DNA of 63,067 nt, the filler included, from Octopus bimaculoides (taxonomy: Eukaryota): assembly GCF_001194135.2 (NCBI RefSeq). It is 5 parts of 4 records of this genome, joined end to end, with 100 filler letters (N's around TTAATTAATTAA, not from the genome) between each part and the next. Parts side by side here need not be neighbours in the genome. Positions count along the whole stretch, not along the records: positions 1 to 10,088 come from NC_068984.1; positions 10,189 to 25,168 come from NC_068981.1; positions 25,269 to 47,175 come from NC_068983.1; positions 47,276 to 59,911 come from NC_068981.1; 1 more part is not named here. The stretch is one strand, 5' to 3'. The position numbers were made by a program, and so were the translations under genes. The notes beneath the pieces were generated by a model. The model ran no database searches and had not been told where the DNA came from. It was given only the letters and a program-made list of their open reading frames with translations. This document shows positions 5,683 to 55,830 of this stretch, in pieces. Each line of letters starts with the position of its first letter. Within the stretch, counting starts at the first letter, position 1.

Positions 5683-5890
5683 AAGCTGGAGTGGAATGTT
5701 TCGCTCCTTTACTCACAGTATATCGGACACAGGTTATATATTGTGAGTAGGGACGATTGACTGCCATCTCTAGCAGGCAAGTATCCAGTACCGATGAAGG
5801 GTAAAGACCCAGAAACCATGGTCTACTGGTCTTGCCAAGCTGGAAGAGAGTCATTCGCTCTCTTACTCACAAGATATCGGACATAGGTTG
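5683..5890 (+). mobile_element. Retrozyme-like 154-nt repeat (1.35 units) containing a hammerhead fold
   Basis: Direct repeat aagctgg...tactcac...tatcggac...aggtt at 5683-5735 and 5837-5889, period 154, with a hammerhead between the copies. Confidence 0.6.
5776..5836 (+). ncRNA. Type I minimal hammerhead ribozyme-like fold (core variant CCGAUGA)
   Basis: Stem I GGCAAG..CCAGUA / UACUGG.CUUGCC. Core CCGAUGA at 5791-5797. Stem II GGGU-aaag-ACCC. GAAA at 5812-5815. Palindromic stem III ACCAUGGU. Predicted GUC cleavage after 5823. Confidence 0.75.
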
Positions 5891-6033
5891 TGTGTCGTTA
5901 ACCAGCTGAAAAAGACGTTTTCTTGGAGTTTAAATGTAGTAACATAATTCTTTATTGAACAACCATGTTATAGTGGCAAAAAAACGTTACCGTCTAGTAT
6001 TGTTACTACTTATATCTCGTTTGGAGATTTTAG

Positions 6034-6085
<52 letters not shown>

Positions 6086-6671
6086 NNNNNNNNNNNNNNN
6101 NNNNNNNNNNNNNNNNNNNNNNNNNNNNNNNNNNNNNNNNNNNNNNNNNNNNNNNNNNNNNNNNNNNNNNNNNNNNNNNNNNNNNNNNNNNNNNNNNNNN
6201 NNNNNNNNNNNNNNNNNNNNNNNNNNNNNNNNNNNNNNNNNNNNNNNNNNNNNNNNNNNNNNNNNNNNNNNNNNNNNNNNNNNNNNNNNNNNNNNNNNNN
6301 NNNNNNNNNNNNNNNNNNNNNNNNNNNNNNNNNNNNNNNNNNNNNNNNNNNNNNNNNNNNNNNNNNNNNNNNNNNNNNNNNNNNNNNNNNNNNNNNNNNN
6401 NNNNNNNNNNNNNNNNNNNNNNNNNNNNNNNNNNNNNNNNNNNNNNNNNNNNNNNNNNNNNNNNNNNNNNNNNNNNNNNNNNNNNNNNNNNNNNNNNNNN
6501 NNNNNNNNNNNNNNNNNNNNNNNNNNNNNNNNNNNNNNNNNNNNNNNNNNNNNNNNNNNNNNNNNNNNNNNNNNNNNNNNNNNNNNNNNNNNNNNNNNNN
6601 NNNNNNNNNNNNNNNNNNNNNNNNNNNNNNNNNNNNNNNNNNNNNNNNNNNNNNNNNNNNNNNNNNNNNNN

Positions 6672-6722
<51 letters not shown>

Positions 6723-7235
6723 ATATATATTATCTAATCATTTTTGCTAGTTTATTTTGTCTCTTTGTCTTCTCTCCTGGTGCTGTATGAACATTTAATG
6801 TGGTTTTAGAGTCAAGTTTTGGTTGCTATATCTAGCATGGTGGTATCTTTTAGATACCCTTAATTATAATTTTAATAATAATTATTACCTATGAGGTCTT
6901 TTATTCCCTGGTATTTTAAATAACGATCTTATCCTTATTTATATAAATTAACAGATTACGTGCTTAGAACCTCAAGATTGCTTCAAGAAACAAAGCGTGT
7001 TTTAAAACCAGCCTAGACGCATGCTTCCACAGAAAGAAACAATTAGTAACTTGTATCTTTATACTGCCTACATTAAATTATATTTATCTCTCACTGGATA
7101 GAGTACTTTTTTGTTGATCTTACCTTAATGGAACAGTATACTATATATGTGTATATGTATGTATCTATGTTTTGTATGTATGTATGTATGTATGTATGTA
7201 TGTATGTATGTATGTATGCATGATAATGTATGTTT

Positions 7236-7340
7236 GTCATTCAGTTTTATTTCAAGACTCCTTGCCAATAGAGAAAGAGTCGGTTTCTAACCTAAATTTA
7301 AAGTTCTTTCATTGGAATTTCAAGAACATCAACAGGGCTG
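7236..7340 (+). repeat. (GTAT)n-embedded interspersed repeat, copy 3
   Basis: Core matches 1291-1395 and is flanked on both sides by (GTAT)n. Confidence 0.75.
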
Positions 7341-7417
7341 ATGTATGTATGTCTGTCTGTCTGTCTGTCTGTATGTATGTATGTATGTGTGTGTGTGTAT
7401 GCATGTATGTATGTATG

Positions 7418-7451
<34 letters not shown>

Positions 7452-9165
7452 TGTATAAGGGTTTACCTCTACAGTCTGTCCCATCCATACAATACATTCT
7501 AAAATTCAATGTTCTTAGAATTGAATCAAGAGGTTTCTTCCGTTTAATCTGACTGACGAAATTCTTCACATGGTATATCGATGATATTCAGTGGTTTTGG
7601 AATTTAAAATACTAGTTTATTTGGGTGTCTATCTTTAAGAATTTGTAAATTAAATCATTCAAGGCAGTATGTCTTTTCCTGAAGAATTTCCAAGCACTGT
7701 TCTCGAACATTAATTGAGTGTACCTAAATGCAGAAACTTGCTTGCTAAAATTGCCAATTATGCAGATCGTATTAAAGTATCATTAAAAGTCAAATCAACA
7801 GTAATGAGAGATTTTAGTCGGCAATTAGATCAATGAGAGAAGTTGTTTTTTAGAGTAGGCAGTAGTATATTGCTTCGTATGGAGTGGATGTGTTCGTGGG
7901 AGAAGTTAACAAGTTTAGTAATGAATGTCGCCAGTTTTCATAGTGTAATAGGTTAAAAGACTTTAAATAATGCGCAATTAGTATTTGATTCAAAGATTAT
8001 AGTCTTTCATAAATAAGTATATAAATAAATATCAAAGCATTTAATAGTTACTTTCTATGTTGAGAAAAGAAAGGGTTTGTCATACTTCGCAACTATAGAC
8101 GCAGAGTTTATCGAAACAAATTTAATATTGAAGTGACTTTAAAAAGTAGATGGAAAATACGATAATAATTTTTTTATCTTTTACAGTGAAAGAGCTGCTG
8201 ACAAAATATATATAGTGATTGATTGCATAGTTCACCAAAATGATTTTCAAACATGTTTTCCAAATGCATCGTTAAGTATATAGCATTATTTAAAAACTTA
8301 CTGCAATATTTGAATAAACCATTTATTATCTTTAGAATTGTGGAACAATTGTAATGAACCGATCTCCCTTGAGCAACATTTGGCCTGCATTAAAATTTGA
8401 AATTGCTCTCCTATAAAATCTTTATTTAAAAAACCGTTTAAGCTTTAAAACAAAAAAGAAATAGTGCCATATAAATTGTATATCTATGTACGAATTTGTG
8501 AAATTAGAAAGTCATTACTTTTCTCAACAGTGGTGTGCTTCAAATTGCACAGATTCTCTAGCTACTTCCTGCAATTCCACACTCGTACAACAATAGTTCT
8601 TCAACTGTGGCGCCATATGTATACGATAATGTTGAAGTTGTTGAGTTTTTGGTATTTTTTGACGGATCAAGTTTTAAATACATATCTATAGTGGTTTTAA
8701 AATAATCATTAAAGAAGAGAAATACAATTAGTGCTTGGGAAATGGAAATTTTGCTTTGTTTTGCTTTTTTAAGAGAACTTTTAATTGTGGGAAAGAAATG
8801 TTTCGATGCAGAAAATAAAGCAAATCTCTTACCTTTTATCTTTTATTTGTTTCATTCATTGGACTGCGGCAATGCTAAGGTAATGCCTTGAAGGACTTAG
8901 AGGAACGAATCGACCCCCCGTTACANNNNNNNNNNNNNNNNNNNNNNNNNNNNNNNNNNNNNNNNNNNNNNNNNNNNNNNNNNNNNNNNNNNNNNNNNNN
9001 NNNNNNNNNNNNNNNNNNNNNNNNNNNNNNNNNNNNNNNNNNNNNNNNNNNNNNNNNNNNNNNNNNNNNNNNNNNNNNNNNNNNNNNNNNNNNNNNNNNN
9101 NNNNNNNNNNNNNNNNNNNNNNNNNNNNNNNNNNNNNNNNNNNNNNNNNNNNNNNNNNNNNNNNN

Positions 9166-9205
<40 letters not shown>

Positions 9206-9225
9206 GGCGATGTATGTGTGTGTGT

Positions 9226-9590
9226 GCATGGCTGTGTGGTAACAAGCTTGCTTCTCAATCACATAGGTCGAATTCAGTCCCACTGCGTGACACCTTGTGA
9301 GTGGATTTGGTAAACGGAAACAGAAAAGAAGCCCATCGTGTATATATATGTATATGTCTACATGTGTATGTCTTTGTATATGTTTGTCCCCCACCACCGC
9401 TTGACATTCGGTGATGATGTGTTTACGTCTCCGTAACTTAGCGACTCGGCAAAGAGAAATTGATGGAATAAGTACCAGGCTCAAAAAAAAACCAAATAAG
9501 TTCTGGGGTCGATTTGTTCGATTAAAACCCTTCAAGGCGGTGCCCCAGCATGACCACAGTCCAATGACTGAAACAAATAAAAGAATAAAG
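9226..9590 (+). mobile_element. SINE family A (internal deletion)
   Basis: Head, body and tail match family A, lacking the gggcaagtgtcttctactatagcc segment. Confidence 0.85.
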
Positions 9591-9926
9591 GAATATATAT
9601 ATATATAATAAATTAAATTAATAATTTTATATATACATATATATATATATATCTTATCTTAGCTATCGCCAAGCTTGCACACGAACATTCTTCGTCCCGC
9701 TTCCTTCCAGTTCGTTGCTCCACAGCGTTCAGTATACACATATTTTTTCCCGTCTGGCTGTATAACCTTTTTTGTTTATTTTCACTGTTTCGTTTTCCTG
9801 TCTTGTTTTCTGTCCGCCACTACATTCCTCATGGTACAAATTCAATTTGTGGTCCGTGGGAAGAGCCATTCTAACGATGCGTCCTGCCCTAACTCTTCGA
9901 AACGATTAATTTTAGAATGGTGGCAG

Positions 9927-10082
9927 CTGATGAAGGAAATGTTCTCTATGTGGCCTGTGTGTTTTCTGCACTCTGTTTATCATTTTGTCCACGTTTTTTT
10001 GCAACGTCCTGTACCCAGATATGCATCTATATATACATGTAGATGTAGGTATGTACATACATGTACGTATATATGCATATAC
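9927..10082 (+). repeat. Single-arm relative of the 2176-2565 foldback family
   Basis: ctgatgaagg.aatgttct.tatgt..cctgt...cctgtaccca.atatgcat shared with 2389-2565. Confidence 0.7.
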
Positions 10083-10088
10083 TCATTT

Positions 10089-10188
10089 NNNNNNNNNNNN
10101 NNNNNNNNNNNNNNNNNNNNNNNNNNNNNNNNTTAATTAATTAANNNNNNNNNNNNNNNNNNNNNNNNNNNNNNNNNNNNNNNNNNNN
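10089..10188. other. Artificial scaffold-join spacer N44-TTAATTAATTAA-N44
   Basis: Exactly 100 nt, with a linker carrying stops in all six frames. Identical to three other spacers. Confidence 0.95.
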
Positions 10189-10315
10189 ATATATATATAT
10201 ATATATGTAATGTATGTATTAGAACTCTACCACCTTCAAAGAATTTATGTGCAAGATGTATTCTTTGTGTGCGTGCGCACATGTGTGCATGTGTGTGTCT
10301 GTATGTTGTGTGTGT

Positions 10316-10359
<44 letters not shown>

Positions 10360-10491
10360 ATGTGCGTGCATATCTCCGCAAATGTTTCCTGACATTTAGT
10401 CCGTGGGCGGGGACCTATATCTAATTTGCTTAACGTTAGTGATTCGGTATCTAGGCAACGGATTAACGAGTTGTAGCAGTTAGACGAGACT

Positions 10492-10496
<5 letters not shown>

Positions 10497-10585
<89 letters not shown>
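10497..10585. repeat. (CT)n microsatellite
   Basis: Directly visible. Confidence 0.98.
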
Positions 10586-10590
<5 letters not shown>

Positions 10591-10649
10591 ATGAGTTGTT
10601 GACGACAGTGGAGAGGAAAGAGGAAAAATTATATATACGCTTCCGGATT

Positions 10650-11142
10650 ACCAGCCGAAGAATCAAGAAAGAGTCACATATAATATATATACAATAAATA
10701 TACATATGGAAAATCCTAGTATTAACTTTGGCATTGAGTATTATACAAATGCCAAACTGGCCGCCATTGCATCGTACCAAAGGCACCATCGGCTCCATCT
10801 GAATTCAGGACCAGATATTGCAATAGTCTAGGGTTCAAAGGTCCACAGCTCTTCAATGCTCTGCCACAAAAATTAAGAAATTTGCATACGATGGAAGTAG
10901 ATGTCTTCAAAAAGGAACTAGACATCCTCCTCTCCACGATACCGGGTGAACCAACAGCACAGCATTAGGTACAGACGAGGGCAGCGGTGTCAAACTCCCT
11001 TATACACCAAATGTACTAACAGCTGGGACAAAGGCACATACAGGAGTGGTGATGTGAAACACCCAGACTGAAGAAGTTAGAAAGACCATAGTGGTGCTCC
11101 AGTATGACCACGGTCGCATGGTGAACAGAGTAAAAGAGTAAA
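10650..11142 (+). mobile_element. CR1-type LINE 3' end (ORF2 C-terminus plus 3' UTR), degenerate
   Basis: Plus-strand translation WKIL...HCIVPKAPSAPSEFRTRYCNSLGFKGPQLFNALPQKLRNL...VDVFKKELDILLSTIPGEP resembles CR1-clade ORF2 C-termini. Ends in an agtaaaagagtaaa tail. Confidence 0.75.
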
Positions 11143-11157
11143 TATATATATATACAT

Positions 11158-11583
11158 TTACTCTTTTACTCTTTTACTTGTTTCAGTCATTTGACTGCAA
11201 CCATGCTGGAGCACCGCCTTTAGTCGAGCAAATCGACCCCAAGACTTATTCTTTGTTAGCCTAGTACTTATATATATATATATATATATATATATACTAT
11301 TTTGCCGAACCGCTAAGTTACGGGGACATAAACACACCAGCATCGGTTGTCAAGCGATGTTGGGGGGACAAACACAGACACATACACACACACACATACA
11401 TATATACATACATATATACGACGGGCTTCTTTCAGTTTCCGTCTACCAAATCCACTCACAAGGTTTTGGTCGGCCTGAGGCTATAGTAGAAGACACTTGC
11501 CCAAGGTGTCACGCAGTGGGACTAAACGCGGGACCATGTGGTTGGTAAGCAAGCTACTTACCACACAGCCACTCCTACGCCTA
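11158..11583 (-). mobile_element. SINE family A, full length
   Basis: Near-identical to 1757-2150, with an (AT)n insertion. Confidence 0.9.
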
Positions 11584-12219
11584 TATACGAGAAGAAAACC
11601 AACGTTTCCGCTGGTATGCCTTTAATTTAATTAGATAACAAAGAAGAAGCATTTACGATCGTTTCAGTTTACTTGTTTTAGTAAATCTCTTCAGAATGCT
11701 AAAAATAGATTGATACATCGGTCAGGATGCGAAAATATTTCATACATATGTGATGGTAATAGAGACAAAGTTAGTAAATCTTGCATTAAATTTTGCTCTT
11801 GAGCTGGTAACTTAATACACACGTGCGAAAAAAATGTGCTTAGTCAAACTCGGAAGACCACACCAAAATAATACGCACCCCGCTCTAATTGACCAACGAA
11901 ACTAACCAATCTACCACTATGAAACCTCTCCTCAGCGAAATCACCAGCTCAAGAACAAAATTTAATGTAAGATTTACTAATTTNNNNNNNNNNNNNNNNN
12001 NNNNNNNNNNNNNNNNNNNNNNNNNNNNNNNNNNNNNNNNNNNNNNNNNNNNNNNNNNNNNNNNNNNNNNNNNNNNNNNNNNNNNNNNNNNNNNNNNNNN
12101 NNNNNNNNNNNNNNNNNNNNNNNNNNNNNNNNNNNNNNNNNNNNNNNNNNNNNNNNNNNNNNNNNNNNNNNNNNNNNNNNNNNNNNNNNNNNNNNNNNNN
12201 NNNNNNNNNNNNNNNNNNN

Positions 12220-15459: not shown

Positions 15460-16016
15460 TTCATTTCGTGCGGCACCTATTTCTCAAGTATTTTTGTTTT
15501 TCCAATCTCTTTCAAGTGGTTGGAAATTGTCGTATACGTTATGTCTAATTCAGAAGCAAGCTGTCGAACGTGGATTGACTTCGTGCGTGGATTGGCTTCG
15601 ACTAAGGCTCTTAGTTGATCGTTGTCAACATCCGATGGCCGACCACTACGTTTATGATCTTCAAGACTCTCGTCACCGCTGCGAAATTTCTTGAACCACC
15701 ATTGTGCTGTGTGTTCCTTAGTGGTTCCTGGGCCAAACGCATCGTTGATATCGTGAGCTGTTTCAGCAGCTTTTTGGCTTAGCTTGAACTGGAATAAGAA
15801 AATTGTGCGAATTTGCCTTTTGTCCTTATTATATTCAACGTTCTGCAAACAATGGCCTAATTATTAAAAAAGAAAAAGAGTAATAGGATTAGATAGAGCG
15901 AAACACGGGCTTTAAAATGATATATGAATTCAAAGTAATTTACCTAAAATTAATTTGAAAAGACTTCATTTAAAACTAAAATTAAAAATTCCGCAAGAAT
16001 TTTCTTGTCAACCCAA
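15460..16016 (-). mobile_element. Mariner transposon 5' part (pseudogenised transposase), runs into gap
   Basis: TIR ttgggttgacaagaaa with TA at 16017-16018. ORF 15848-15477 has WFKKFRSGDESLED..RSGRP. The WVPHE motif is mutated to stop-VPHE. Confidence 0.9.
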
Positions 16017-16980
16017 TACAATACTATGCCTTGAATGCTGTGTGGTTTGAGATAGGCGTTGAGAGGTCAAAAGTATTTCATTGTAGCTGCTTAATTTACG
16101 TCTACTAATTTACGCGGTCAGTGGTCATGACGTTGCTCAGGTGAAGTTGTTAACATAGCTATACAGTTGACAGCAGAGGCAGCGTTCGAATCCTACAGAC
16201 GATGTCGTTAGAAATTAGATTATTATCATTAATGATTTCTACATTAGATACAAGGTCACGTGATTGCAATGGAACATTACTTCATTTGCATTTACTCTAC
16301 AGAATGTAGAAGGATGAACAGCAAAATCTCTCTGGATTGGAAACGAACTCAGAACTTTAAATGATACAACCAAACACTGTAAAAGTCACCGTAAGAGGTT
16401 CTACCTATTTTGTCAATCCAGCGACCTCAAACCTTGCTCATGTAACAAGATAGGAACCTTCTCTTTCGCTTCTTGAGAGACCCACCTCCAGCCTACACTC
16501 GCTGAGACAGAAAGGTTTTTCTTTAAATATTTATTATGTTTGTACTTTATAACTATTTGAAGTAATATTATTTTTTACCGGTTATTTTTTAGTCTAACAG
16601 TAGATATTTTATAATAATCTCTTTTTGTAGTTGCACAATGTTTCTACCTGTATTTGTGGCTAATATACAGTTCTCTATCATGTTATAAAGACTATATTCC
16701 ATCTGCTTATTTCGATAAGTGTTTATCGTCAAATTTTCTATGCAATTTATCTCTTTTCTCATAAGAAAATAGTTTGAAATCTTCAGGGAAATCTTTTATG
16801 CAATATTCGGATTTTCTAGACTGGTTCCGAAATCTAGTTAATTAAGAACACAACTATCACGCTAATTAAAAAAAAAAAACTCCGGGATAAGAAAATTTCG
16901 CCACTGACATGCAAATACTTATGAATCACTCAACTTGACATTGTAAAGCACTCACACAATTGAAAGAAGGAGGAGATATT

Positions 16981-17191
16981 CTTTTCTACTCTAGGTACAC
17001 GGCCCGAAATTTTGGGAGAGGGCCCAGTCGATTACATCGATCTCAATATGCAACTGGTACTTAATTTATCGACCTCGAAAGGATGAAAGACGAAGTCGAC
17101 CTCGGCGGAATTTGAACTCAAAACGTAGATAGACGAAATACTGATGAGTATTTCGCCCGGCGTGCTAACGTTTCTGCTATCTCACCGCCTT
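16981..17191 (-). mobile_element. tRNA-derived SINE family B (B1 tail)
   Basis: Head aaggcggtgag...gttagcacgccgggcg, B-box gagttcaaattcc, tail gggccgtgtacctagagtagaaaag. Confidence 0.9.
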
Positions 17192-20149: not shown

Positions 20150-22122
20150 TTCCAGGTAGTGAACTGGTGATGGGTTCGTTGGAAATATGTAATCAATGTG
20201 TAACTGGTCATCTGGTACATTTTACTGTGCCCATTCTATTGCGAGCAATGAAATTGAGTCATGTGCCTTCAAATTACTTCATTGTTTCTTCTCACCAGTC
20301 TCAGTGGGTCTGGAAGCAACCATGAGCGCTGCACTTTATATAAAAAGAAACAATAAAATATGATCTGGTTAACTTTTGCCAGTTGTGGGTGAACGGAGTA
20401 AAGGTCACTGATTTGTATAATTTTACCGTCCCTATGTCATCTGAGTGGTTAACTCAGTAAACTCTCAGCAACCCAACTTCATTCTGCATTTAACATGTAT
20501 CATATGACCATGGAAAAGAAACCACAATAACCAATGAAAGCACAGCAATTGGATGAGATTTTTCTTTTTTTTTTTTGAGTTCTGGAAGAGATTTAGGTGC
20601 TGCATTTTCCATGCTAGCGGTACGGAAAATAATGAAACAAAAGAATGGATCGTGAAGAGTGATACATTTTTGACATGTTACAAATCGTTCTGTTTTTGCA
20701 ACTTAATTTGCATAGGAAATTACCTCAGCTTTATGTCTTAAACGAAAATGCATAACCGCACTTATCGATAATTTACATAGTAATAATTCACTGTAATCCT
20801 TCAAGTATTTATTTATAAGAAAATATCTCTGAATAATTGTTCTTTCAATCTTTACTTAATATATTTATGGTTCCCGTACTAATTAACTTGATCAAAAACA
20901 AACAAAAAAAAGCTCAAACAACTACATCAAAAATTTTTACTTGATTGAAGCAGTGCGTTCAAATCTTATCTGCAGAAGTTAAGAGAAACGTAGTGGATAA
21001 TTATACTAGTATTCAACTTTGCACTAACGGACTTAATCAATCAGCCACTTGCTCTTTGGTGTTGTAATTAATATGGTCCAATCTTGTTTGTTTCTTTTTC
21101 CAAGACCACATCCCTTTGGGACGTAATTTCTAATTATGTTTTCCGTTGTAGTATTAACTTCGCTCAATCCAAGCTGAGTATAAGCGGAATTAATATTGCT
21201 CTCACCCAACTATCCTTGTGTTACAATGTATACAAATATTATAATTAGTGGTTACTATCCTTAGTCCTTAGATTAAATTGGAGATAGAAATAAATAAATC
21301 ATAGAAGGCAAATCTGATGACAAAAATAATTGAAGAAATATAAAATAAGGTATTGAGAAATTACATATTCATCAGAGCACTCCGTCGGAACTAGTAGCGA
21401 TGTAATTGTAGAAGACAGTACTAGCACAACCGATAATGATTATTACATATACAACTCCAATATGTCGAAGGGGTTTATAACAAAGAGTAAGAGATACATG
21501 GTACCGAAGACATTCGAACGCGAAGCACAGCATCTTGGTATAAGTTCTTTTATGCTTAGTATTTTTTCTTGATATCATGTCTTTTGGCGTTGGGCTGGCA
21601 AGTCACTGTTGTAATTTATAGAAGAAAAGCTTATGAACCTACTTAACTAGGTCTACTCTGGTTGTTCAAACTTACAATCAAAGGTGTCTCCGCCGTCACA
21701 GTTGAGATCTTTTGTAAACCAGTAAATGTATTCTTCAAAGCCTCCTTGTTTTAAAGATAGATGTACTTTGAAGCTATACTTTAACGAGTTGCAGCAAAAC
21801 GAATGACCGTATGTAGATATTCTCGTTGTACAGGAGAATGTTGTAGGGCCGTGAGATGTGCTTTGACATGAAGTAAACCCCAAGGAACAACGGTTTGCGT
21901 CTCTTCTCTTTTTATTTCCTATGTAATAACCAGTTTACCAATATGATACTTCATCTACCAGTTTTTGAGATTATTATAATTATTTATGTCTTTTATTATA
22001 GATGTTTGTTTTCCCTGAAATCAACTCAGAGAAGAAGAATACTCATGCAGGTGTTTCCACCCCCTCTACAGTTATGGGCCAAGACACTTGCATGAGGGGA
22101 GTGTTACTTCTCCGAAGACCTT

Positions 22123-22558
22123 CTTTTCTACTCTAGGCACAAGGCCCGAAATTTTTGGGGAGGGGGCTAGTCGATTAGATCGACCCTCTCCCCAGTACGC
22201 AACTGGTACTTAATTTATTGATCCCGAAAGAACGAAAGGCAAAGTCGACCTCGGCGGAATTTGAACTCAAAACGTAAAGACAGACAAAATACGCTAGGCA
22301 TTTCACCCGGTGTGCTAATGTTTCTTATTTCTTTATTGCCCACAAGGGGCTAAACATAGAGGGAACAAACAAGGACAGACAAAGGGATTAAGTCGATTAC
22401 ATCGACCCCAGTACGTAACTGGTACTTAATTTATCGACCCCGAAAGGATGAAAGGCAAAGTCGACCTCGGCGGAATTTGAACTCAGAACGTAACGGCAGA
22501 CGAAATACCGCTAAGCATTTCGCCCGGCGTGCTAACGATTCTGCCAGCTCACCGCCTT
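22123..22558 (-). mobile_element. Two tandem SINE family B copies (B2 tail then B1 tail)
   Basis: Units at 22123-22320 and 22321-22558. gaagaccttct flanks the pair at 22114-22124 and 22565-22575. Confidence 0.9.
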
Positions 22559-31956: not shown

Positions 31957-32009
<53 letters not shown>

Positions 32010-34120: not shown

Positions 34121-35038
34121 CTGGTCATAAACTACATACAAGAGCTGGTGTGTGATAGTTATCCTATTTATACTCTTTACCCATGTACATCTGTCATTGG
34201 AAATACACTGACCTTAGTCACAAATCTGCCAAGTATCATCAACATTTTGCTATTCATTCAAACAGCTCTATCTCATCTCTTACAAATTGTTTAAAAACCC
34301 ATGTTAGCATGCGTCATTAATTTGAAAATAGAAGTAAAATAAAAAGTTTTAATTCTCATCTGTGATAATTATATTATTTAATATTTATTTGATATTGATT
34401 AGCTGATAATGAACAAGTTAATTAAATAATATTTACAATGTATTTTTATCTCCTAAATTTTACTTCCATACTACACATTTTCAGTGAACAAAATGATTTT
34501 TTAAATATCTTCAAAAAATTCAGTTCCCACTATCAATGTCAATATAACCTTGCAAATGTTAAATTAAGGCTTTTATGTAGCTGTTCTTGTCAAAATACCA
34601 AGATTTACTGTGCAGGACTACTAGCTGCTCACATGGTTTTCAGTTCAAACCTTATGGCAGCCTTTGTGGTGTGCTTCTGAGCAAAGTACCTAGTTCTATT
34701 AGCATCAAAGTAAAATAAATAAATGCATCAGCAAAAAAATATAAGTGGGGGTAAGGATAAGTGGGGTGAAGATGTTATGTGCCAAGAAGAGAGATGAGTT
34801 CTGACATTTGTAATAGCCTACCCTCATAGCACACAAGCTTATTTTACAGATTTTATTAATTACTCCAGATTTATCTGATTGAACATAAACAGGTTCCATT
34901 TTCTACTTCACAACTAAGTGATCAGCAATAAGTGGAGCATTACCTAGCTATATAAACAAAAATAATTGTTGCAAGAAGAAGCCGTTATACTTATAGAAAA
35001 AATGTAGATATTTATTAAATATAATTATCTATTATTTA

Positions 35039-35422
35039 TAGGTGCAGGATTGGCTGTGTGGTAAGTAGCTTGCTTACCAACCACATGGTTCCGGGTTCAG
35101 TCCCACTGCGTGGCACCTGGGGCAAGTGTCTTCTACTATAGCCTCAGGCTGACCAAAGCCTTGTGAGTGGATTTGGTAGACAGAAACTGAAAGAAGCCCG
35201 TTGTATATATATATATATGTTTGTGTGTCTGTGTTTGTCCCCCCACCATCGCTTGACAACCGATGCTGATGTTATGTCCCCGTAACTTAGCGGTTCGGCA
35301 AAAAGAGACCGATAGAATAAGTACTAGGCTTACAAAGAATAAGTCCTGGGGTCGATTTTCTCGACTAAAGGCGGTGCTCCAGCATGGCCGCAGTCAAATG
35401 ACTGAAACAAGTAAAGAGAGTA
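35039..35422 (+). mobile_element. SINE family A, full length
   Basis: Matches family A. Confidence 0.9.
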
Positions 35423-35813: not shown

Positions 35814-35890
35814 GCCCATGGCATAGTGGTTAAGAGCACGGGCTACTAACCCCCAAGATTCCGAGTTCAATTCCAGGCAGTGACCTGAAC

Positions 35891-35921
<31 letters not shown>

Positions 35922-36079
35922 TCGAAAAATACCTTAGGAATGAAAAATCCCCAAGACACCTGATGAAGGCTGGAGGGTATATCAGCCGAAACATTGTGTT
36001 AACAACAAACAAGATGAGGACAAATATCCGTCAAATGTAAATAATGTACATAATTCCTCATCTCTTAAATATAGAACTG
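35814..36079 (+). mobile_element. tRNA-headed SINE family F with (AAT)n linker and hammerhead-containing tail
   Basis: A-box tggcatagtgg, B-box gagttcaattcc, (AAT)n, then gacacCTGATGAaggctg...cagccGAAA. Homologues at 52044-52219 and 55720-55830. Confidence 0.8.
35955..36000 (+). ncRNA. Minimal type I hammerhead-like fold in SINE F
   Basis: Stem I GACAC/GUGUU, core CUGAUGA at 35960-35966, stem II GGCUG/CAGCC, GAAA at 35988-35991. Family consensus stem III is ACGU (ACAU in this copy). Confidence 0.7.
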
Positions 36080-41633: not shown

Positions 41634-41871
41634 TTTCTTATTTCTTTATTGCCCACAAGGGGCTAAACATAGAAAGGACAAACAAGGACAGACAAAGGGA
41701 TTAAGTTGATTACATCGACCCCAGTGCGTAACTGGTACTTAATTTATCAACCGCGAAAGGATGAAAGGCAAAGTCGACCTCGGCGGAATTTGAACTCAGA
41801 ACGTAACAGCAGACAAAATACCGCTAAGCATTTCGCCCGGCGTGCTAACGTTTCTGCCAGCTCGCCGCCTT
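41634..41871 (-). mobile_element. SINE family B (B2 tail) with ~18-bp TSD
   Basis: taagcaacacaatttctt (41622-41639) versus taaacaacacgatttctt (41871-41888). Confidence 0.92.
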
Positions 41872-42467
41872 AAACAACACGATTTCTTTCAGATATTGAT
41901 ATCTATAATATTGTTTACTAGAGCAATTTAGACTAAAATACTTATCACATGCGTAGATATAAGTGTTAGTTCTGTAAAATACTGNNNNNNNNNNNNNNNN
42001 NNNNNNNNNNNNNNNNNNNNNNNNNNNNNNNNNNNNNNNNNNNNNNNNNNNNNNNNNNNNNNNNNNNNNNNNNNNNNNNNNNNNNNNNNNNNNNNNNNNN
42101 NNNNNNNNNNNNNNNNNNNNNNNNNNNNNNNNNNNNNNNNNNNNNNNNNNNNNNNNNNNNNNNNNNNNNNNNNNNNNNNNNNNNNNNNNNNNNNNNNNNN
42201 NNNNNNNNNNNNNNNNNNNNNNNNNNNNNNNNNNNNNNNNNNNNNNNNNNNNNNNNNNNNNNNNNNNNNNNNNNNNNNNNNNNNNNNNNNNNNNNNNNNN
42301 NNNNNNNNNNNNNNNNNNNNNNNNNNNNNNNNNNNNNNNNNNNNNNNNNNNNNNNNNNNNNNNNNNNNNNNNNNNNNNNNNNNNNNNNNNNNNNNNNNNN
42401 NNNNNNNNNNNNNNNNNNNNNNNNNNNNNNNNNNNNNNNNNNNNNNNNNNNNNNNNNNNNNNNNNNC

Positions 42468-43540: not shown

Positions 43541-43937
43541 AGGTGCAGGAGTGGCTGTGTGGTAAGTAGCTTGCTTACCAACCACATGGTCCCGGGTTCA
43601 GTCCCACTGCGTGACACCTTGGGCAAATGTCTTCTACTATAGCCTCGGGCTGACCAAAGCCTTGTGAGTGGATTTGGTAGACGGAAACTGGAAGAAGCCC
43701 GTCGTATATGTATATATGTATGTGTGTGTGTCTGTCTGTTTGTCCCCCCAGCATCGCTTGACAACCGATGCTGGTGTGTTTACGTTCCCTGTAACTTAGC
43801 AGTTCGGCAAAAGAGACCGATAGAATAAGTAATAGGTTTACAAAGAATAAGCTCTGGGGTCGATTTGCTCGACTATAAAGGCGGTGCTGCAGCATGGCCG
43901 CAGTCAAATGACTGAAACAAGTGAAAGAGTAAAAAGT
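43541..43937 (+). mobile_element. SINE family A, full length
   Basis: Matches family A and ends about 170 bp before the MsrB acceptor. Confidence 0.9.
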
Positions 43938-44135
43938 ATGAGCATAATCACCATCCAAAGACTTAAATAGTGAGAAAAAAAGAAAAAATTAAGTGATGAA
44001 CATTAAATGTAACTATATTTGTTGCTTTTATATCTGTTTATGTAATTATGTAATTCCAACTATGAAAATGATGATGATGATGATAAGTTGCTTTTTGTTT
44101 ATAGGTGCTAATGAAAATTGCTACTCCTTGGCTGC

Positions 44136-44314
44136 ATGAACTTGTTGCATACTATCACTGCTAAGCGGGAAAGTTCGCCTGCTCTCAAGAAACTACAGGC
44201 ATCATGTCAGGACTCTGCGAGTGGTACGTGCCCTGTCACATATTCCAAAGAAGAACTGAAGGAAAAACTTTCTTCTGTACAGTATCGGGTCACTCAGGAG
44301 AAGGGCACAGAGAG
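44136..44314 (+). CDS. MsrB: Methionine-R-sulfoxide reductase B (MSRB3-like), first coding exon
   Basis: ATG 44136 opens MNLLHTITAKRESSPALKKLQASCQDSASGTCPVTYSKEELKEKLSSVQYRVTQEKGTE(R), with the MsrB motif L..L...QY.VTQEKGTE. Acceptor tttttgtttatAG ends at 44104. Donor AG|GTATGT at 44314/44315 is phase 2. In-frame stops at 44109 and 44112 force the start to lie inside this exon. Confidence 0.9.
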
Positions 44315-46319: not shown

Positions 46320-46492
46320 GGCCTACTCTGGCAAATTTCTTAGTTGGAATGAAGAAGGAATATTCACATGTGTTGTGTGTGGGAATAAACTTTTTGCTTC
46401 TGATACCAAGTTTCACTCAGGGTGTGGTTGGCCGTCCTTTACTGACGTCATTGAAAAAGGCAATGTCACCTTCAAAGATGATTTCAATCATG
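46320..46492 (+). CDS. MsrB: MsrB second coding exon (gene incomplete, catalytic exon(s) absent from window)
   Basis: Acceptor tttccttttactAG ends at 46319, and phase 2 completes Arg. Translation AYSGKFLSWNEEGIFTCVVCGNKLFASDTKFHSGCGWPSFTDVIEKGNVTFKDDFNH(G) contains the first Zn-binding CxxC and the SGCGWPSF motif. Donor G|GTAAGT at 46492/46493 is phase 1. Confidence 0.95.
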
Positions 46493-46869
46493 GTAAGTCT
46501 AGTTTACAACTATAACTTGCATATATATATAAGGATATGTTTGTTCAGGAGAACAAAACCCATAAATATGAATTAAAGAATTCAATTTCAGCTTATAGCA
46601 TAGTAGAGAATATATATATATATATATTTACTATAGATGCTATAGAAAGTATCTTTGAGTACATGTCTGGACTACCAAGAGCAGATCTCTTCACTCAGCT
46701 GGGTTGCATTGTCTGCAAACTCAGCAGGAATATCAGGTGCAAACACTCATGCACAGAGTTTTGATATTCAATATTCAATTAATATTGTTTGGGTGTGCGG
46801 ATTATACCGACCCAACAAGGTGCCTCAATTTAAGTGCTTCATTCAACAAAATCTTAATTATATTTTATA

Positions 46870-47275: not shown

Positions 47276-47283
47276 TATTACTG

Positions 47284-47640
47284 GAGAAGGCTGATTTATG
47301 GGATTAGCCTGGGTTCTGATCCATAAAGGGTTTAACTTTATGGCGTATCGTCAGAACCCAAAACCTGTTGGTCTAAGACCTCTTCAAAACATGGAAGGAG
47401 AAAGGCCTCCTTACGAATGTAAACAAGGGGATTAACTCTCTTTGCCATTGTCTATCGACTTCCGGCGGTACAGCTATCTTGCAAATTCCAAAACGTCAGC
47501 AGCAAATTTGGTATCCGCAAGATGGCGGCACAGCCGAAAATCGATAATCGGTAGCTAATGGCAAAGGAGATCATCTCCTTGTTTACATTCGTAACGAGGC
47601 TTTTCCCCCTCCGCTTTAATATCAATGACCTCCTGTCATC
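47284..47640 (-). mobile_element. Penelope-like element 3' terminus in head-to-head inverted arrangement, with hammerhead fold
   Basis: 47284-47482 is the reverse complement of 51286-51492, and 47517-47612 is a second partial copy on +. The minus strand has CTGACGA-tacg-ccataaag/ctttatgg-atca-GAAC at 47300-47359. Confidence 0.75.
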
Positions 47641-48844: not shown

Positions 48845-49265
48845 AGAGAGGAGCTTCGCTACAGACTCCTCTTTCGCGCCCCATCTCTAATAATCCTCCA
48901 AACGTTTTCTATAGGGTTGAGATCGGGACATTGAGGTGGCCAGTCCATGAGATCAACTCCTTCATCACTCAAAGAATCTTTGACCCTCTTCGCAGTGTGG
49001 CAGGGAGCGTTGTCCTGCACGAAGATAGAAGGTGAAACTGACGAGGATCGGAGATGTGGAAGGGCATGTTGTCTAAGAATCTGCTTGTAGATTTCAGCAT
49101 CGCGACTCACTTTTAGGCGAATAAGTGAACCAGGACCAGCAGTAGAGATCACTCCCCATACCATTACACTGCCTCCTCCATATTTCACTGTTTTCTTTAT
49201 ACATACACATGATAACCTTTTGCCACTTCATCGTCGGACGTATATCCTGCCATCGGAACCAATCA
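48845..49265 (-). mobile_element. Tc1 (DD34E) transposase fragment
   Basis: GSDGRIYVRR*...TVKYGGGSVMVWG...QDNAPCH...WPPQCPDLNPIENVW. Confidence 0.92.
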
Positions 49266-49373: not shown

Positions 49374-49885
49374 AATAGATATTAGATATATCTATATATG
49401 TGTAAAATATCTAGTCTCAACGTTTTGTTAATCTTCTATAATAGCTATTTCAATACACTTGTTCTTAATGATTCTTATATTATGGCGCTGCTGTATATAT
49501 ATAGGAATGTGCCTGTGTATGGGTGTTTGTGCACGTGCGTGTGTGTGTGTGTGTGTGTGGTGGGGTGTCCGCATCTGTAGGAAGCTATATGTAGGCGTTA
49601 GGATGTATACGTATATGAATATCTGTTTTGGATATATACGACAGATATTCATACACATATACATCGTCTCACTTACATATAACTTCCTACAGACGCGGGC
49701 ACCCCCCACCCCCACACACGTACGTGCACAAACACCCACACACAGGCACTCTCCTATATATATACAGCAGCGGCCATAATATAAGAATCATTAAGAACAA
49801 GTATATTGAAATAGTTATTATAGAAGATTAACAAAACGTTGAGACTAGATATTTTACACATATTTAGATATATCTAATATCTATT
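49374..49885. repeat. Foldback element, ~245-bp arms, ~15-nt loop
   Basis: aatagatattagatata...gaatatctg is the reverse complement of cagatattc...tatatctaatatctatt. Confidence 0.9.
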
Positions 49886-49925: not shown

Positions 49926-50262
49926 GTATGTATGTATGTATGTATGTATGTATGTATGTATGTGTATATGAGTATGAATATATATGTATGTGTGTGTATA
50001 TGTATATATATATATATGTATATGTATATATGTGTATATATGAGTGCGTCTGTGTGTCTGTTTGTATGTGTGAGTGTGTGTGTATGTCTGGATCTATGTA
50101 TGTACCTATGTATAAATCAATCCAAGGAAAGAAACAATTCCTTCAAAGGGTTGGAAAACATCCAATTTTCATTGGTACTTCAGTTAAGTACCACAAATAT
50201 ATTTGGTACTTCAGTTAAGTACCACAATATATTTGTCCGAATTTAAAATGGTATAATTTCAA

Positions 50263-50740
50263 CATACAAATATTAAAGGAAATAGAGAAATACAATCGAC
50301 ATATTAAAAAATTATTAATATAATAATATAATATAATTATACTACAAAAAGATATAATATTATATAATATAACAATTGAAACAAATATATATCTTACAAT
50401 TTGTTTCGACTCATATCCATTAGTGGATTTATAAAAATTCACATTTATGCATATGAGTCTCCACAGGAGCAGTCATTGCATGGAATTTTTGCCTATGTTT
50501 TAGACAAATATTACTCTGACGAGACTCATATGCATAAATGTGATGTTTTATAAATTCACTAGTATATATGAATCGAAACAAATTGTAGGATATATATTTG
50601 TTTTAATTATTTGTTATATTACATTATAATATATTGTATTATATTATATATCTTTTCATTGTATAATTATATTATATTATAATATTGATAAATTTTTAAT
50701 ATGTCAGTTGTATATCTCTATTTCCTTTAATATTTGTATG
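50263..50740. repeat. AT-rich foldback element, ~200-bp arms, 59-nt spacer, hammerhead fold in right arm
   Basis: Arms at 50263-50461 and 50521-50740. CTGACGA at 50516-50522 and GAAA at 50575-50578. Confidence 0.85.
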
Positions 50741-50851
50741 TATCTACATGTATGCGTATGTATATATATGTGTGTGTATATGTATACGTGTGTATTTATA
50801 TATATGTATTTGTGTGTATGTGTGTGTATGTGTATATGTATGTGTGTGTGT

Positions 50852-50978: not shown

Positions 50979-51492
50979 AATATTATTGGATGTTCCGGGA
51001 ATTTTTACAAGGTCGTCCTTCAGAGTTCTGGAAAGGAGATACGTAACATCATTGGCCAGCCACGTCTGACAACTAAGAAACGATGGGATTCCATACTCGA
51101 TCATATGGAAATTCTTCGAGAACGCAGGCCCCTACATCAACGGGACGAAACGTTGCAATTTATGCATAGTTAAGCATGCGAGAATCCTAAAAGGATCATT
51201 CGAACCAGAGAACATCGTTAACTCCAGAACGGAAATTTTCGGGTGATGTTTACATTTCCGGGGGTTCCTGCTAGCCCTTTGGAGCCCGCAAGATGGCGGC
51301 ACAGCTGGAGGTCGATAGCCATTAGAAAAGGGAGATAATCCCCAATTGTTACCTTTGAGTAATGAGGCATTTCCCCCTCCATATTTTTAAGAGGTCATGG
51401 GCCAACAGGTTTTTGGGATCTGATGATACGCCATAAAGCTAAGCTCTTTATGGATGGGAAACCTAAGATAATCCCATAAACCAGTTTTTCCC
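50979..51492 (+). mobile_element. Penelope-like element: degenerate GIY-YIG C-terminus plus 3' UTR with hammerhead
   Basis: Remnants IIGCSG...SSFRVLERRYVTSLASHV*QLRNDGIPYSIIWKFFENAGPYINGTKRCNLCIVK...VNSRTEIFG*CLH..FLL match the PLE C-terminal pattern (W..L...A.PY.NG.KRCNLC...LN.R.E...CRH). Confidence 0.85.
51415..51475 (+). ncRNA. Type I hammerhead-like fold in the PLE 3' UTR
   Basis: Stem I GGGAU/AUCCC, extendable to 51408-51482. CUGAUGA at 51420-51426. 8-bp stem II CCAUAAAG/CUUUAUGG. GAAA at 51458-51461. Stem III is imperfect. Confidence 0.7.
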
Positions 51493-51500
51493 ATTTTTAA

Positions 51501-51543
<43 letters not shown>

Positions 51544-52043
51544 ATGTATATATNNNNNNNNNNNNNNNNNNNNNNNNNNNNNNNNNNNNNNNNNNNNNNN
51601 NNNNNNNNNNNNNNNNNNNNNNNNNNNNNNNNNNNNNNNNNNNNNNNNNNNNNNNNNNNNNNNNNNNNNNNNNNNNNNNNNNNNNNNNNNNNNNNNNNNN
51701 NNNNNNNNNNNNNNNNNNNNNNNNNNNNNNNNNNNNNNNNNNNNNNNNNNNNNNNNNNNNNNNNNNNNNNNNNNNNNNNNNNNNNNNNNNNNNNNNNNNN
51801 NNNNNNNNNNNNNNNNNNNNNNNNNNNNNNNNNNNNNNNNNNNNNNNNNNNNNNNNNNNNNNNNNNNNNNNNNNNNNNNNNNNNNNNNNNNNNNNNNNNN
51901 NNNNNNNNNNNNNNNNNNNNNNNNNATATATATATATATACATAACCGTTAAATGCATGACATTCGGAAACTGAACAACAAAATACTTTGATGTTTGATG
52001 ATGCAACGAGAAACGTGATTCATATCCAGATAAAAATATATAA

Positions 52044-52219
52044 CATTATTTACATTTGACAGATATTTGTCCTCATCTTGTTTGTTGTTAACACAACATT
52101 TCGGCTGATATACCATCCAGCCTTCATCAGGTGTCATGGAGAAATTTCGAACTTGGGTTCTCACTCCTAAGGTATTTTTCGATGTTATTATTATTGTTAT
52201 TATTCGAACTCGGAATCTT
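52044..52219 (-). mobile_element. SINE family F copy (partial head, AAT linker, hammerhead tail)
   Basis: Reverse complement reads gacacCTGATGAaggctggatggtatatcagccGAAAtgttgtgtt (52135-52090). Head remnant gaactcggaatctt at 52206-52219. Confidence 0.8.
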
Positions 52220-52516
52220 TGGATTATTTTAGGTTTGGTGATACAAACAAGAAAAATATAATTCAAAGATGCGTCAGTGTACTCACTTATATGAGGGAAT
52301 ATACATATATAGATATATAAATATATAGATATACATGCAAATACATATACGCGGATACACACACACGCACACATGCACACACACATACTCATATACAATA
52401 AACATCTTGTATATCGTCCTCTCCTATATTTATAACCGCCTGACACTTGTATATCTATACGTACCTATACATAAGTGCGCTAATGAGTGTGTGCATATGT
52501 AGGAGACCACCAGATG

Positions 52517-52805
52517 TAATTGGATTTGGTAGACGGAAACTGCGAAACGCCCGTCGTATATAAAAATGTATATGTCTATGTTTGTGTGTCTTTGTATTTG
52601 TGTTTGTCCCCTCATCACTGCTTGACAACCGGTGTTGGTATGTTTACGTCCCCGTAACTTAGCGGTTCGGCAAAAAGATGCCGATAGAATAAGGACTAAG
52701 CTTTAAAATATAAGTCCTGGAATCGATTTGTTCGACTAAAAACCTTCACAGCAGTTCCCCAGCATGGCCACAGTCAAATTACTGAAACAAGTAAATATAA
52801 AAGAT
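52517..52805 (+). mobile_element. SINE family A 3' half
   Basis: ggatttggtagacggaaactg...ccagcatggccacagtcaaattactgaaacaagtaaa. Confidence 0.85.
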
Positions 52806-53452
52806 ATATANNNNNNNNNNNNNNNNNNNNNNNNNNNNNNNNNNNNNNNNNNNNNNNNNNNNNNNNNNNNNNNNNNNNNNNNNNNNNNNNNNNNNNNNNN
52901 NNNNNNNNNNNNNNNNNNNNNNNNNNNNNNNNNNNNNNNNNNNNNNNNNNNNNNNNNNNNNNNNNNNNNNNNNNNNNNNNNNNNNNNNNNNNNNNNNNNN
53001 NNNNNNNNNNNNNNNNNNNNNNNNNNNNNNNNNNNNNNNNNNNNNNNNNNNNNNNNNNNNNNNNNNNNNNNNNNNNNNNNNNNNNNNNNNNNNNNNNNNN
53101 NNNNNNNNNNNNNNNNNNNNNNNNNNNNNNNNNNNNNNNNNNNNNNNNNNNNNNNNNNNNNNNNNNNNNNNNNNNNNNNNNNNNNNNNNNNNNNNNNNNN
53201 NNNNNNNAATATTAGATTAAAAATTTAATCCAGTTTAGTAAGTTTATAGAAAAGAAAGTGAATTTTAGACTACGCGCGTTTCGTGGCCACATAATAACAG
53301 AAAAAATCTGTACAATTCACAATAAATCTACTCAGATAAATTCTACTCAGAATGAAGTCACTCTTCAAGTCTTTATAAATTCAAATAACGTATCCTACTA
53401 TCCTACGTGTAGGAAAACTATTATTAGTACAATACATAAAATGTCAAGGTTT

Positions 53453-54277
53453 AATAATAATAATCATTCAAGTTAAAGGCCTAATTCCTCTAACGAAGAA
53501 AAGCTTTCTGTAGATTAAGAATAGGAAAACATATAAAAAGATAGTGTTATTAACTAATAAATAAATTCGGACGTTTAACAGTATTAATAAAATAAACATC
53601 ACTTATCTTATCGAAGATTCCTTGTTGACTGTAGTATTAACCTTAATGCATGGAATTTATACGTGTGTCACGTGACAATATGGCGTCCCTCCGTGAACTC
53701 AAATATCAAACTTACTATATGTAATTTAAAATATATAAATCACGTGATAATATGGCGTCATAAGGAGAAGAGAGAAGAACGTATTATAATGGATAAAATG
53801 ACGAAATATGTATAATAATCGGGAAACTAATCTGTAGTATGCTATTTAGTAGAAGAATAAAATTTTAATTATTATTGAAGTCTAAGTAATAAGAACTAAT
53901 AAATGTAAGAGGTATCTAAGGTACGTAAGTCATACTAAATTATGAGGAATAGAAATATTTCGGTGAACTTGTAGCTTATTTATACATCTCTTAGTAGCTT
54001 ATTTATTTTTATTCTATGTATTTTTCCCAAAACTTTCACAATCTAACTAAACTTTATTCTCTTCTACGAAGTCATTACTATAGCAATTTTTTTAAAAAAA
54101 TAAGGTTTGTATAAACATTATCTAAACTTATTATATGAAAATTTCAGTTTATGTCTACATTTAATTTTGCGTTCATCTTGGGAATTTATTAATTTTTTTA
54201 TTATTAGTTAATAATATCTCCTTGAACTCTTCATTAGAGGAATTAGGCCTTTAACTTGAATGAATATTATTATTATT
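53453..54277. mobile_element. AT-rich element with ~45-bp terminal inverted repeats (MITE-like)
   Basis: cattcaagttaaaggcctaattcctctaa (left) and ttagaggaattaggcctttaacttgaatg (right). Confidence 0.65.
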
Positions 54278-54299
54278 TCACTCGGGTAATTTTTTCTCT

Positions 54300-55209
54300 C
54301 GCAGATTCCCTTCAAGCTGGACGACCAAATTCTGTCAATAGTGAGCATCTGGAGAACGTAGTTGAGGAAGACCTGAAGTAAACGGCATGAGAATTAGGGA
54401 AACAGTTCAATGCAAGTCACATTTCAATCCTAAAACACCTCCATGAACAAAGAAAAGTATCTATACTTGGTCAGTGGGTCTCATCATCTGACTGCTTCTC
54501 AACCTAATCTAAGGGTTGCTTTCAGCTCGCCATTGAAGATTAGACTTGTTATCGTATTCTACTTTGATAGAATACTTACATGAGATTAAACCGGGTTCTC
54601 TATAATGATACTCAATGTTTAGTACCAATGGAGAAGGAGAATCCATCCCCAAACCAGGACTACACCCGAAAAAGTTATGCTCCGTGTTTGATAAGATATG
54701 AGGGGTGTCGTCTATTTTAAAGTGTTAAACCAAAATGAAACAGTTAATGTTGAAAAGTACCATCCTACGTTGGAAACGTTGCACAAGAAATTTTCAGAAA
54801 AGAGTCCACAAAAAACGCACATCGTTGATCAATCATTATGGTGTGTTGCTCTTATACGATAACACAAGACCACATATTACCCAAGTTACTCAGGATTAAG
54901 GCACTAAATATGGAAGTTTGTCCTTAATATCTTTACTCTCTTAACCTTCTTCTATCTGATAAGCATCTTTTCAGAACATTGCAAAATTATTTAGAGAGAA
55001 AACAGTTCAATAATTGTGAAGATATTGAGTATTTCTTTGCCTCAAAAACTGAAGAATTTTACGCCCTAGGGATCAACAATTTGCTAAATAGATGGAATTA
55101 TTTTATGTATAACGAGGGGAAATATCATCGTGATAAAATTTATCAATTAAAAACAATGAAGTATTTTTTCCTCATCTTGAAATGCGATAGGACTTTCTTT
55201 CCAACCTAA
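54300..55209 (+). mobile_element. Degenerate mariner, 5'-truncated, 3' TIR intact
   Basis: Remnants resembling WDMRGVVYF, DNTRPH and SDKHLFRTLQN. Ends tttctttccaacctaa followed by TA. Confidence 0.85.
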
Positions 55210-55719
55210 TATATATGTGTGTATGTACATATAATCAATTCTGCTTAACTGCATACCGGATAATGACAGTTTTTCAAAACAAACCGAACCGTTTAGCATT
55301 AAGTCTATGTAAAATTGATTGGTTAATTGCAAATGAAATTAATATCGATTATGTTTTTCCGACGAAAATGTGTTAAGCGAAATGGCATGTGAAAATTGAC
55401 ACATACAAATTCCATGAATGTCATCTAAATATGATCGCTTCATAAAATGTTTAATATACTGTAATTTATTTGCCTTGAAGTATGTCATGCTGAAGATATC
55501 AAATAAGATATCAAATGACTAGTTATGAAGAGAAAATTTAAGACCTTTGAATTCAGTAGAAAAAAAAAAAAAAATTTGAATTTATATATTCTGTGCATCT
55601 TCCTTGCTCTTCAATTTAACATTCAAACTTGTAACCTGGTCATGATTAAACTAGCACTTATAATAACTGCTGTCAAAGCACACCATGTATTCAAATACAC
55701 ATTTATTTAATATATTTTT

Positions 55720-55830
55720 CAGTTCAATATTTAAGAGATGAGGATTTATGTACATTATTTACATTTGACGGATATTTGTCCTCATCTTGTATGTTGTTAA
55801 CACAACGTTTCGGCTGATATACCATCAGCC
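55720..55830 (-). mobile_element. SINE family F tail fragment
   Basis: Reverse complement ggctgatggtatatcagccGAAACGTTgtgttaac...aactg keeps the ACGT palindrome but lacks CTGATGA. Confidence 0.8.

Follow-up and report, generated by a model that had tools for sequence, protein, structure and literature searches.

Hammerhead ribozyme motifs in seven unrelated contexts within a 63-kb window of the Octopus bimaculoides genome and their probable Penelope-like origin

Sequences resembling hammerhead ribozymes recur across a stretch of 63,067 nucleotides from the genome of Octopus bimaculoides (NCBI RefSeq assembly GCF_001194135.2), which consists of five parts of four records joined end to end with filler and is hereafter called the window. 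This raises the question of whether these sequences are genuine ribozyme motifs and, if so, what kind of mobile element has left them there. A first-pass annotation had proposed at least four unrelated hammerhead-bearing repeat families, and hammerhead-like sequence is present at every position that it listed. The motifs are genuine and reside in seven unrelated contexts (A, B, C, D, F, G and H), and most of them are damaged; most likely they represent the 3′ ends (pseudo-long terminal repeats, pseudo-LTRs) of several families of Penelope-like elements (PLEs) together with short non-autonomous derivatives, mostly in a decayed state. The features concerned are the following.

5683-5733, plus strand: fragment of the preceding A unit, matching 5837-5889 with 76-79% identity.
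5734-6036, plus strand: repeat unit of family A, supported by DNA contig joints and continuing upstream in other copies (fold z -3.26).
5776-5836, plus strand: type I hammerhead of A, with core CCGATGA at 5791, stem III ACCATGGT and predicted cleavage after 5823.
11648-11700, minus strand: hammerhead F, with core at 11694 and stem III ACGATCGT; the whole motif (z -0.13) does not fold better than shuffles.
11768-11983, no strand assigned: inverted repeat upstream of F (arms 11768-11808 and 11938-11983), the second arm entering an N gap.
35815-35890, plus strand: tRNA-like head of copy B1, with A box at 35819-35829 and B box at 35865-35873.
35891-36082, plus strand: (AAT)n linker and tail of B1, with a minimal hammerhead at 35955-36000 (core 35960, H17 35995).
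47276-47612, no strand assigned: copy C1 (47276-47505, minus) with a decayed hammerhead at 47299-47359, and its inverted arm (47507-47612).
50262-50741, no strand assigned: foldback D of 480 bp, with the hammerhead in the right arm at 50504-50603 (core 50516, H17 50587).
51265-51500, plus strand: copy C2, with the hammerhead at 51415-51476 (core 51420, H17 51470).
52043-52222, minus strand: copy B2, with the hammerhead at 52090-52135 and a 14-nt remnant of the head at 52206-52219, lacking the last ~36 nt of B1 and B3.
53267-53372, minus strand: motif G, with core TTGAAGA at 53368, stem III ACGCGCGT and a long stem II region.
55720-55830, minus strand: copy B3, 5′-truncated at stem II with ACGT intact, directly adjoining a (TAA)n run next to a further short interspersed element (SINE).
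58277-58334, plus strand: hammerhead H, with core at 58281 and stem III ACCGGT.

The descriptor used for detection required stems I and II together with a C[T/C]GANGA core, GAAA and UH, whatever the pairing of stem III. At each of two stem thresholds it gave seven matches in the window (5791+, 11694-, 35960+, 50516+, 51420+, 52130- and 58281+), compared to means of 0.15 (maximum 2) and 0.48 (maximum 4) in 300 block dinucleotide shuffles per threshold, none of which (0/300 at each) reached seven. A similar rate in shuffled sequence, which the first-pass annotation had named as speaking against its claim, was thus not observed at these settings, and neither the reversed nor the complemented window yielded any match with the same descriptor. 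Motif G was detected once one core mismatch was allowed, its core starting with T, and is the weakest of the motifs (z -0.33).

The strongest evidence that the motifs are genuine is the palindromic stem III, since it was not demanded by the descriptor. The inner pairs of stem III are self-complementary in 13/16 cases among the seven window matches versus 39/142 and 105/381 (27.5%) among the null matches, and stem III is fully palindromic in 4/7 versus 1/46 and 16/144, respectively. An exact core combined with a fully palindromic stem III is found in three matches, F, H and D, versus 0.04 in the null. The palindrome is nevertheless broken in B1 (ACAT) and B2 (ATGT), which keep cores and stems, is imperfect in C2, and in family B persists solely in B3 (ACGT), where the core is absent; the opposite changes at one CG in B1 and B2 imply ACGT as the probable ancestral state. 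Predicted stem III self-duplexes amount to -11.2 kcal/mol in A, -10.0 in F, -8.3 in H, -13.3 in G, -3.4 in D, -1.7 in B3 and -1.2 in C2, with none predicted for B1 and B2.

Cores are exact in B1, B2, C2, D, F and H, carry U4C in A and U3 in G, and are incomplete in C1 and B3. Hence, of the two C copies first annotated as hammerheads, the one at 51415-51475 does have an exact core, while its partner at 47300-47359 has lost GAAA (reading AGAA-CC), is recognised by none of the descriptors and is predicted to fold as a different hairpin. Pairing of stems I and II holds in the seven motifs that pass the descriptor, with the qualifications that in C1 and C2 pairing is poor over the initial part of stem II adjoining the core, that A has an A opposite an A at the stem II base, and that D, although it matches the descriptor, has imperfect stem I pairing beside the core, its left arm (50262-50468, minus) starting inside the core and having no intact one. 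An extra nucleotide after A9 together with G10.1-C11.1 is present in B; in D and H the G-C pair occurs but the additional nucleotide is missing, in A an extra A stands on both sides, and C and F fit poorly.

Neither blastn nor nhmmer found a match between any family and the hammerhead of another; since the contexts do not match one another, they are counted as seven, so that "at least four" holds for A, B, C and D and was an undercount with respect to F, H and G. A is a multi-copy family, B has three copies and C two copies, and D, F, G and H are represented by one locus each in the window. Self-cleavage of all these motifs is a prediction from sequence, and most genomic copies are probably inert.

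A Penelope-like origin would account for the motifs as follows. A PLE reverse transcriptase/endonuclease encoded elsewhere would start copying the RNA at the 3′ end and frequently halt early, leaving behind short hammerhead-bearing tails, inverted 5′-truncated partners (C1, D, F and G) and insertions at microsatellites. In the master element, two hammerheads would pair via the palindromic stem III and cut the tandem transcript into monomers; A would then be a retrozyme-like tandem derivative, and B likely a tRNA-headed one, while C, D, F, G and H may be either non-autonomous families or ends of autonomous PLEs truncated at the 5′ side. The origin from PLEs, mobilisation in trans and cleavage as dimers are all inferred. 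In line with this, four motifs (C1, D, F and G) are held in outward-pointing inverted repeats like those of PLE insertions, G having an inverted repeat at 53452-53499 and 54228-54275 upstream whose arm stops before the hammerhead. PLEs show inverted 5′-truncated copies, an optional tail of 30-40 bp and a bias towards microsatellites (PMC8557442), a pattern which is matched in part here, by D, by the ~36-nt extra end of B1 and B3 and by the position of B at AAT runs; the partner of F enters a gap. Moreover, the consensus published for metazoans, CUGANGAH-G..C-GAAA-palindrome-UH (PMC4209133), is fitted by B.

Several observations weigh against the motifs themselves or against this interpretation. 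The descriptor thresholds were fixed post hoc with the candidates already in view, the loosest descriptor (one mismatch each in core and palindrome, stems ≥2.5) gives 8 matches in the window versus a null mean of 4.2, with 9/100 shuffles reaching at least 8, and the strict descriptor, which does not allow the extra nucleotide, gives none in the window. The folds of A (z -3.41) and B (z -2.25 and -2.56) are strongly and moderately better than those of shuffles, respectively, but those of F, G, H, C2 and D (z -0.13 to -1.75) are not significantly so. A comparison with Rfam, proposed as a check by the first-pass annotation and carried out at the scale of the window, assigned 0/146 matches at E ≤ 5 to hammerhead families, and 0/2 and 0/7 in two further searches; the PLE-type hammerheads found here escape the Rfam models. 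The inverted arms of C1, which ends before the hammerhead, and of G are 3′-short, unlike the usual shared 3′ end. No Pfam match to a reverse transcriptase or GIY-YIG domain was obtained in 97 of the 121 open stretches of the window (24 in SINEs or simple repeats were left out of the scan, N gaps account for 6,222 bases, and short frameshifted remnants could escape it), so that none of the motifs can be linked to a PLE open reading frame (ORF). Finally, just one of nine tested dimers from Xenopus cleaved (bioRxiv 10.64898/2026.07.22.740005).

In family B, for which a SINE chimera had been claimed, the layout of B1 comprises the head, (AAT)9 and a tail of 165 nt in which the hammerhead lies ~85 nt before the end. 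The A and B boxes of an RNA polymerase III (Pol III) promoter lie 35 nt apart and form the sole pair in the window that matches the box patterns applied (null mean 0.025), and the head aligns loosely with the heads of two SINE families that are abundant in the window. No tRNA was called in it by ARAGORN (0 genes in the window) or Rfam; the 163 calls of a relaxed ARAGORN run were discarded as noise. The three copies comprise one full head, one 14-nt remnant and one truncated copy without head, the claim being supported by B1 and, through its remnant, by B2. The arrangement suggests a PLE-dependent SINE, and B is likely a tRNA-headed derivative of a PLE. Either part of B may already have an entry in a repeat collection such as Repbase, Dfam or SINEBase. 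A perfect hairpin opens B3 at its truncation point (55812-55830), possibly reflecting a template switch within stem II.

It is also possible, although we lean against it, that B is not a chimeric SINE at all but a PLE tail fragment inserted in (AAT)n runs, twice behind a tRNA-like SINE head. Such an origin would agree with the position of B3 at a (TAA)n run next to a different SINE, with the preference of PLEs for microsatellites (PMC8557442) and with B2, where ~20 nt between head and linker are missing in addition to most of the head. Against it, the window contains exactly two occurrences of a 14-mer of the B head, each just upstream of a B tail, despite 11 AAT-type runs; the start of the tail is common to B1 and B2; and no B head without a tail was found in the window. 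The placement of the 14-mer therefore favours B as one head-tail unit, while B3 at its (TAA)n run keeps the insertion scenario alive.

Family A was compared over 5662-6030 at 80% likeness with contigs from one DNA run and with three raw RNA runs. In the DNA, 656 records match, of which 509 are less than 95% alike; the summed depth is ~7,000-12,000 over most of 5753-6012 with a dip to ~3,700 at 5857-5869, and single listed contigs have depths of 31-48. By the tool's own warning depth is not a copy number, and the copies are estimated at roughly a few hundred. A head-to-tail joint from 6030 to 5734 is found in nine contigs, with further joints of 249 and 289 bp, and other sequence precedes 5734 in 43 contigs; it follows that the unit is at least ~320 bp long and that 5683-5733 is a scrap of the preceding unit. 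A unit of ~155 bp, as derived from the match between 5683 and 5837, was rejected on the basis of these contig joints. The unit is non-coding and within the size range of retrozymes (150-450 bp), and at the DNA level, being multicopy with head-to-tail joints, A behaves as a non-LTR retrozyme. Two consecutive complete hammerheads were not present among the contig pieces listed, the window itself containing one. A long outer stem (5734-5765 with 5845-5880) encloses the A hammerhead, and the majority letter at 5873 would pair an A-G mismatch in it.

Among the rows listed (12 further ones being unseen), no majority change falls within 5784-5844, and hence most copies of the family share with this locus its CCGA core, stems and palindrome as well as the A at 5811. 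The variants of the core are symmetric (T at 5792 in 23%, A at 5793 in 22%) and resemble those at the CG of 5991/5992 (17% and 25%), which points to a master with CCGA that underwent CpG decay and not to one with CUGA; a CUGA subfamily of greater divergence would have escaped notice. Changes private to the window number 0/61 inside versus 17/236 outside the hammerhead (p 0.028), a difference of little weight given the post-hoc bounds and the same 12 unseen rows.

The RNA runs, all from one study with an unspecified library selection method, were sampled at ~6% of each run and for family A alone. They contain 29, 34 and 19 matching reads from 12.9, 12.0 and 11.5 million records, i.e., 1.7-2.8 per million in 3/3 runs, none of which is at least 95% alike to this locus. 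The reads run in both directions, 84-93% of them continue into unlike sequence, and the three runs show neither end pile-ups nor, among those listed, back-joints; at 5823/5824 in particular no pile-up of read ends is seen, albeit at a shallow depth of only ~10 reads per run. A T at 5792 in 18/20 reads and an A at 5793 in 14/20 show that the reads mostly come from damaged cores of a few loci. Such reads are as expected if scattered copies are transcribed by read-through, and not as expected of abundant retrozyme RNA, and with so few reads, no pile-ups and no joints, abundant circular RNA is unsupported. The tandem retrozyme of the first-pass annotation is thus supported in the DNA but not as an abundant RNA, and its suggestion of circular RNA found no backing in the three runs. 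No RNA run was listed as containing 4920-6030, and seven runs from four other organisms, with 9-11% of its words, were left out of the comparison.

These data render it improbable that all families are dedicated non-autonomous self-cleaving RNAs which are expressed and circularised today. Family A would suit such a role by its retrozyme-like size, its tandem joints and its self-paired unit, and retrozymes of mussel, coral and axolotl do give rise to abundant circular RNA (PMC7229834); the scarce and run-on reads of A described above speak against it, as does the damage to core or palindrome in the window copies of B, C and D. Similarly improbable is an explanation of the foldbacks as assembly artefacts or DNA elements akin to miniature inverted-repeat transposable elements (MITEs), and of the weaker motifs F, G, H and D as chance, since despite the occurrence of foldbacks without hammerheads in the window and of several null matches under relaxed descriptors, F, H and D combine exact cores with fully palindromic stems III and the arms of D differ by 13% in aligned-column identity, unlike an artefact of read duplication. 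An origin from PLE 3′ ends and their derivatives remains the preferred interpretation.

With respect to the surroundings, exons of msrB (SelR) lie at ~44247-44314 and 46321-46493 on the plus strand. No later msrB exons were found in the window, so that the motifs past 47 kb may lie within an intron, those of D, C2 and H on its sense strand. Remnants of Tc1/mariner transposases (Pfam HTH_48 and DDE_3) occur at 308-949(-), 15480-15860(-) and 48862-49227(-). The long foldbacks without a hammerhead match (2172-2569, 49374-49885 and 27340-27442) are possible MITEs or PLE-type inversions. One abundant tRNA-like SINE family is found, amongst others, at 1757-2151, 11155-11585, 31792-32205, 35000-35422 and 43541-43938, and a second, sitting in ATT/TAA runs, at 16976-17191, 22121-22558, 28848-29077, 41634-41873 and 55844-56372. 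A third dispersed family (27095-27330, 30884-31120 and 60335-60481) has CTGAGGA followed by a hairpin, with no passing GAAA or stem I and no descriptor match. Exact patterns of A and of B had 0 matches each in metagenome contigs.

The seven descriptor matches in 56,845 called bases correspond to ~1 per 8 kb, in a window selected for hammerheads and with a relaxed descriptor; if this density held genome-wide, the 2.8-Gb genome would harbour 10^5 or more motifs. A more far-reaching proposal, unlikely as it stands, would be that B is a very high-copy, tRNA-headed SINE with a borrowed Penelope 3′ end and minimal hammerhead, mobilised by PLEs and not by long interspersed elements (LINEs), in a genome whose hammerhead load is among the densest known and includes a retrozyme family spread with a CCGA core, which is non-canonical. 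If B is a PLE-dependent SINE, the rule that SINEs have partners would be widened beyond LINEs, and B would offer a small substrate for the study of recognition by the PLE reverse transcriptase. Because the majority core change of A is known to slow cleavage, A lends itself to asking, in a natural setting, if a repeat must cleave in order to spread, a point left open in PMC8557442.

PLE hammerheads and retrozyme-like repeats are hereby extended to a lineage without a report in the literature searched: no cephalopod hammerhead was found there, although subscription papers, repeat libraries and supplements may hold one. Octopus is absent from two supplement files of PMC4209133 that were searched, cephalopods are not covered in the available text of PMC7229834 or bioRxiv 10.64898/2026.07.22.740005, and a 2026 repeat annotation of Octopus vulgaris, in its accessible part, lists 31 recently active Penelope-like families and does not use the word "ribozyme".

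The minimal hammerheads of PLEs (Cervera and de la Pena 2014, PMC4209133) share with the motifs described here the type I topology, the palindromic stem III, many single truncated motifs and pairs on opposite strands, and with B also the extra nucleotide after A9 and G10.1-C11.1, and have been found in molluscs such as Lottia and Crassostrea. Extended palindromes, U3 cores and a single additional A ahead of GAAA likewise have precedents there, and the same work describes a low activity of dimers and thousands of single motifs per genome (~2,000 in Schistosoma, 4,000 in coelacanth and 9,000 in Xenopus). The octopus motifs differ in that no PLE ORF was seen beside them, in the longer stem II of D, G and H and, for several of them, in palindromes of 6-9 nt.

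Non-LTR retrozymes (PMC7229834; bioRxiv 10.64898/2026.07.22.740005) resemble A in being non-coding and arranged head to tail, with a unit size (at least 320 bp in A) of 150-450 bp, a 6-bp stem I and a 2-bp stem III with a palindromic tetraloop. In contrast, A has U4C as family majority and two adenines facing each other at the stem II base, its RNA was not seen in abundance in three runs, and most of its contigs show no tandem joints. PMC7229834 reports 16 hammerhead families from a single coral and copy numbers of ~5,000 for mussel and 126,247 for axolotl, and proposes that retrozymes are mobilised by PLEs; the bioRxiv study supports their PLE origin.

The SINE-like SM-alpha and Sj-alpha elements of schistosomes (PMC6765202; PMC8490949) resemble B1 in that a type I hammerhead lies downstream of a Pol III promoter, yet are often in tandem and cleave in vitro, whereas the B copies are solitary, with an (AAT)n linker between head and tail and a minimal hammerhead of PLE type located ~85 nt before the 3′ end. 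Finally, the U4C change of A is known as a natural viroid variant of lower in vitro activity and retained infectivity (PMC3088659); in A, by contrast, it is found in most copies of a repeat family in the genome. Set beside these systems, the motifs are mostly an expected outcome for a PLE-rich animal genome.

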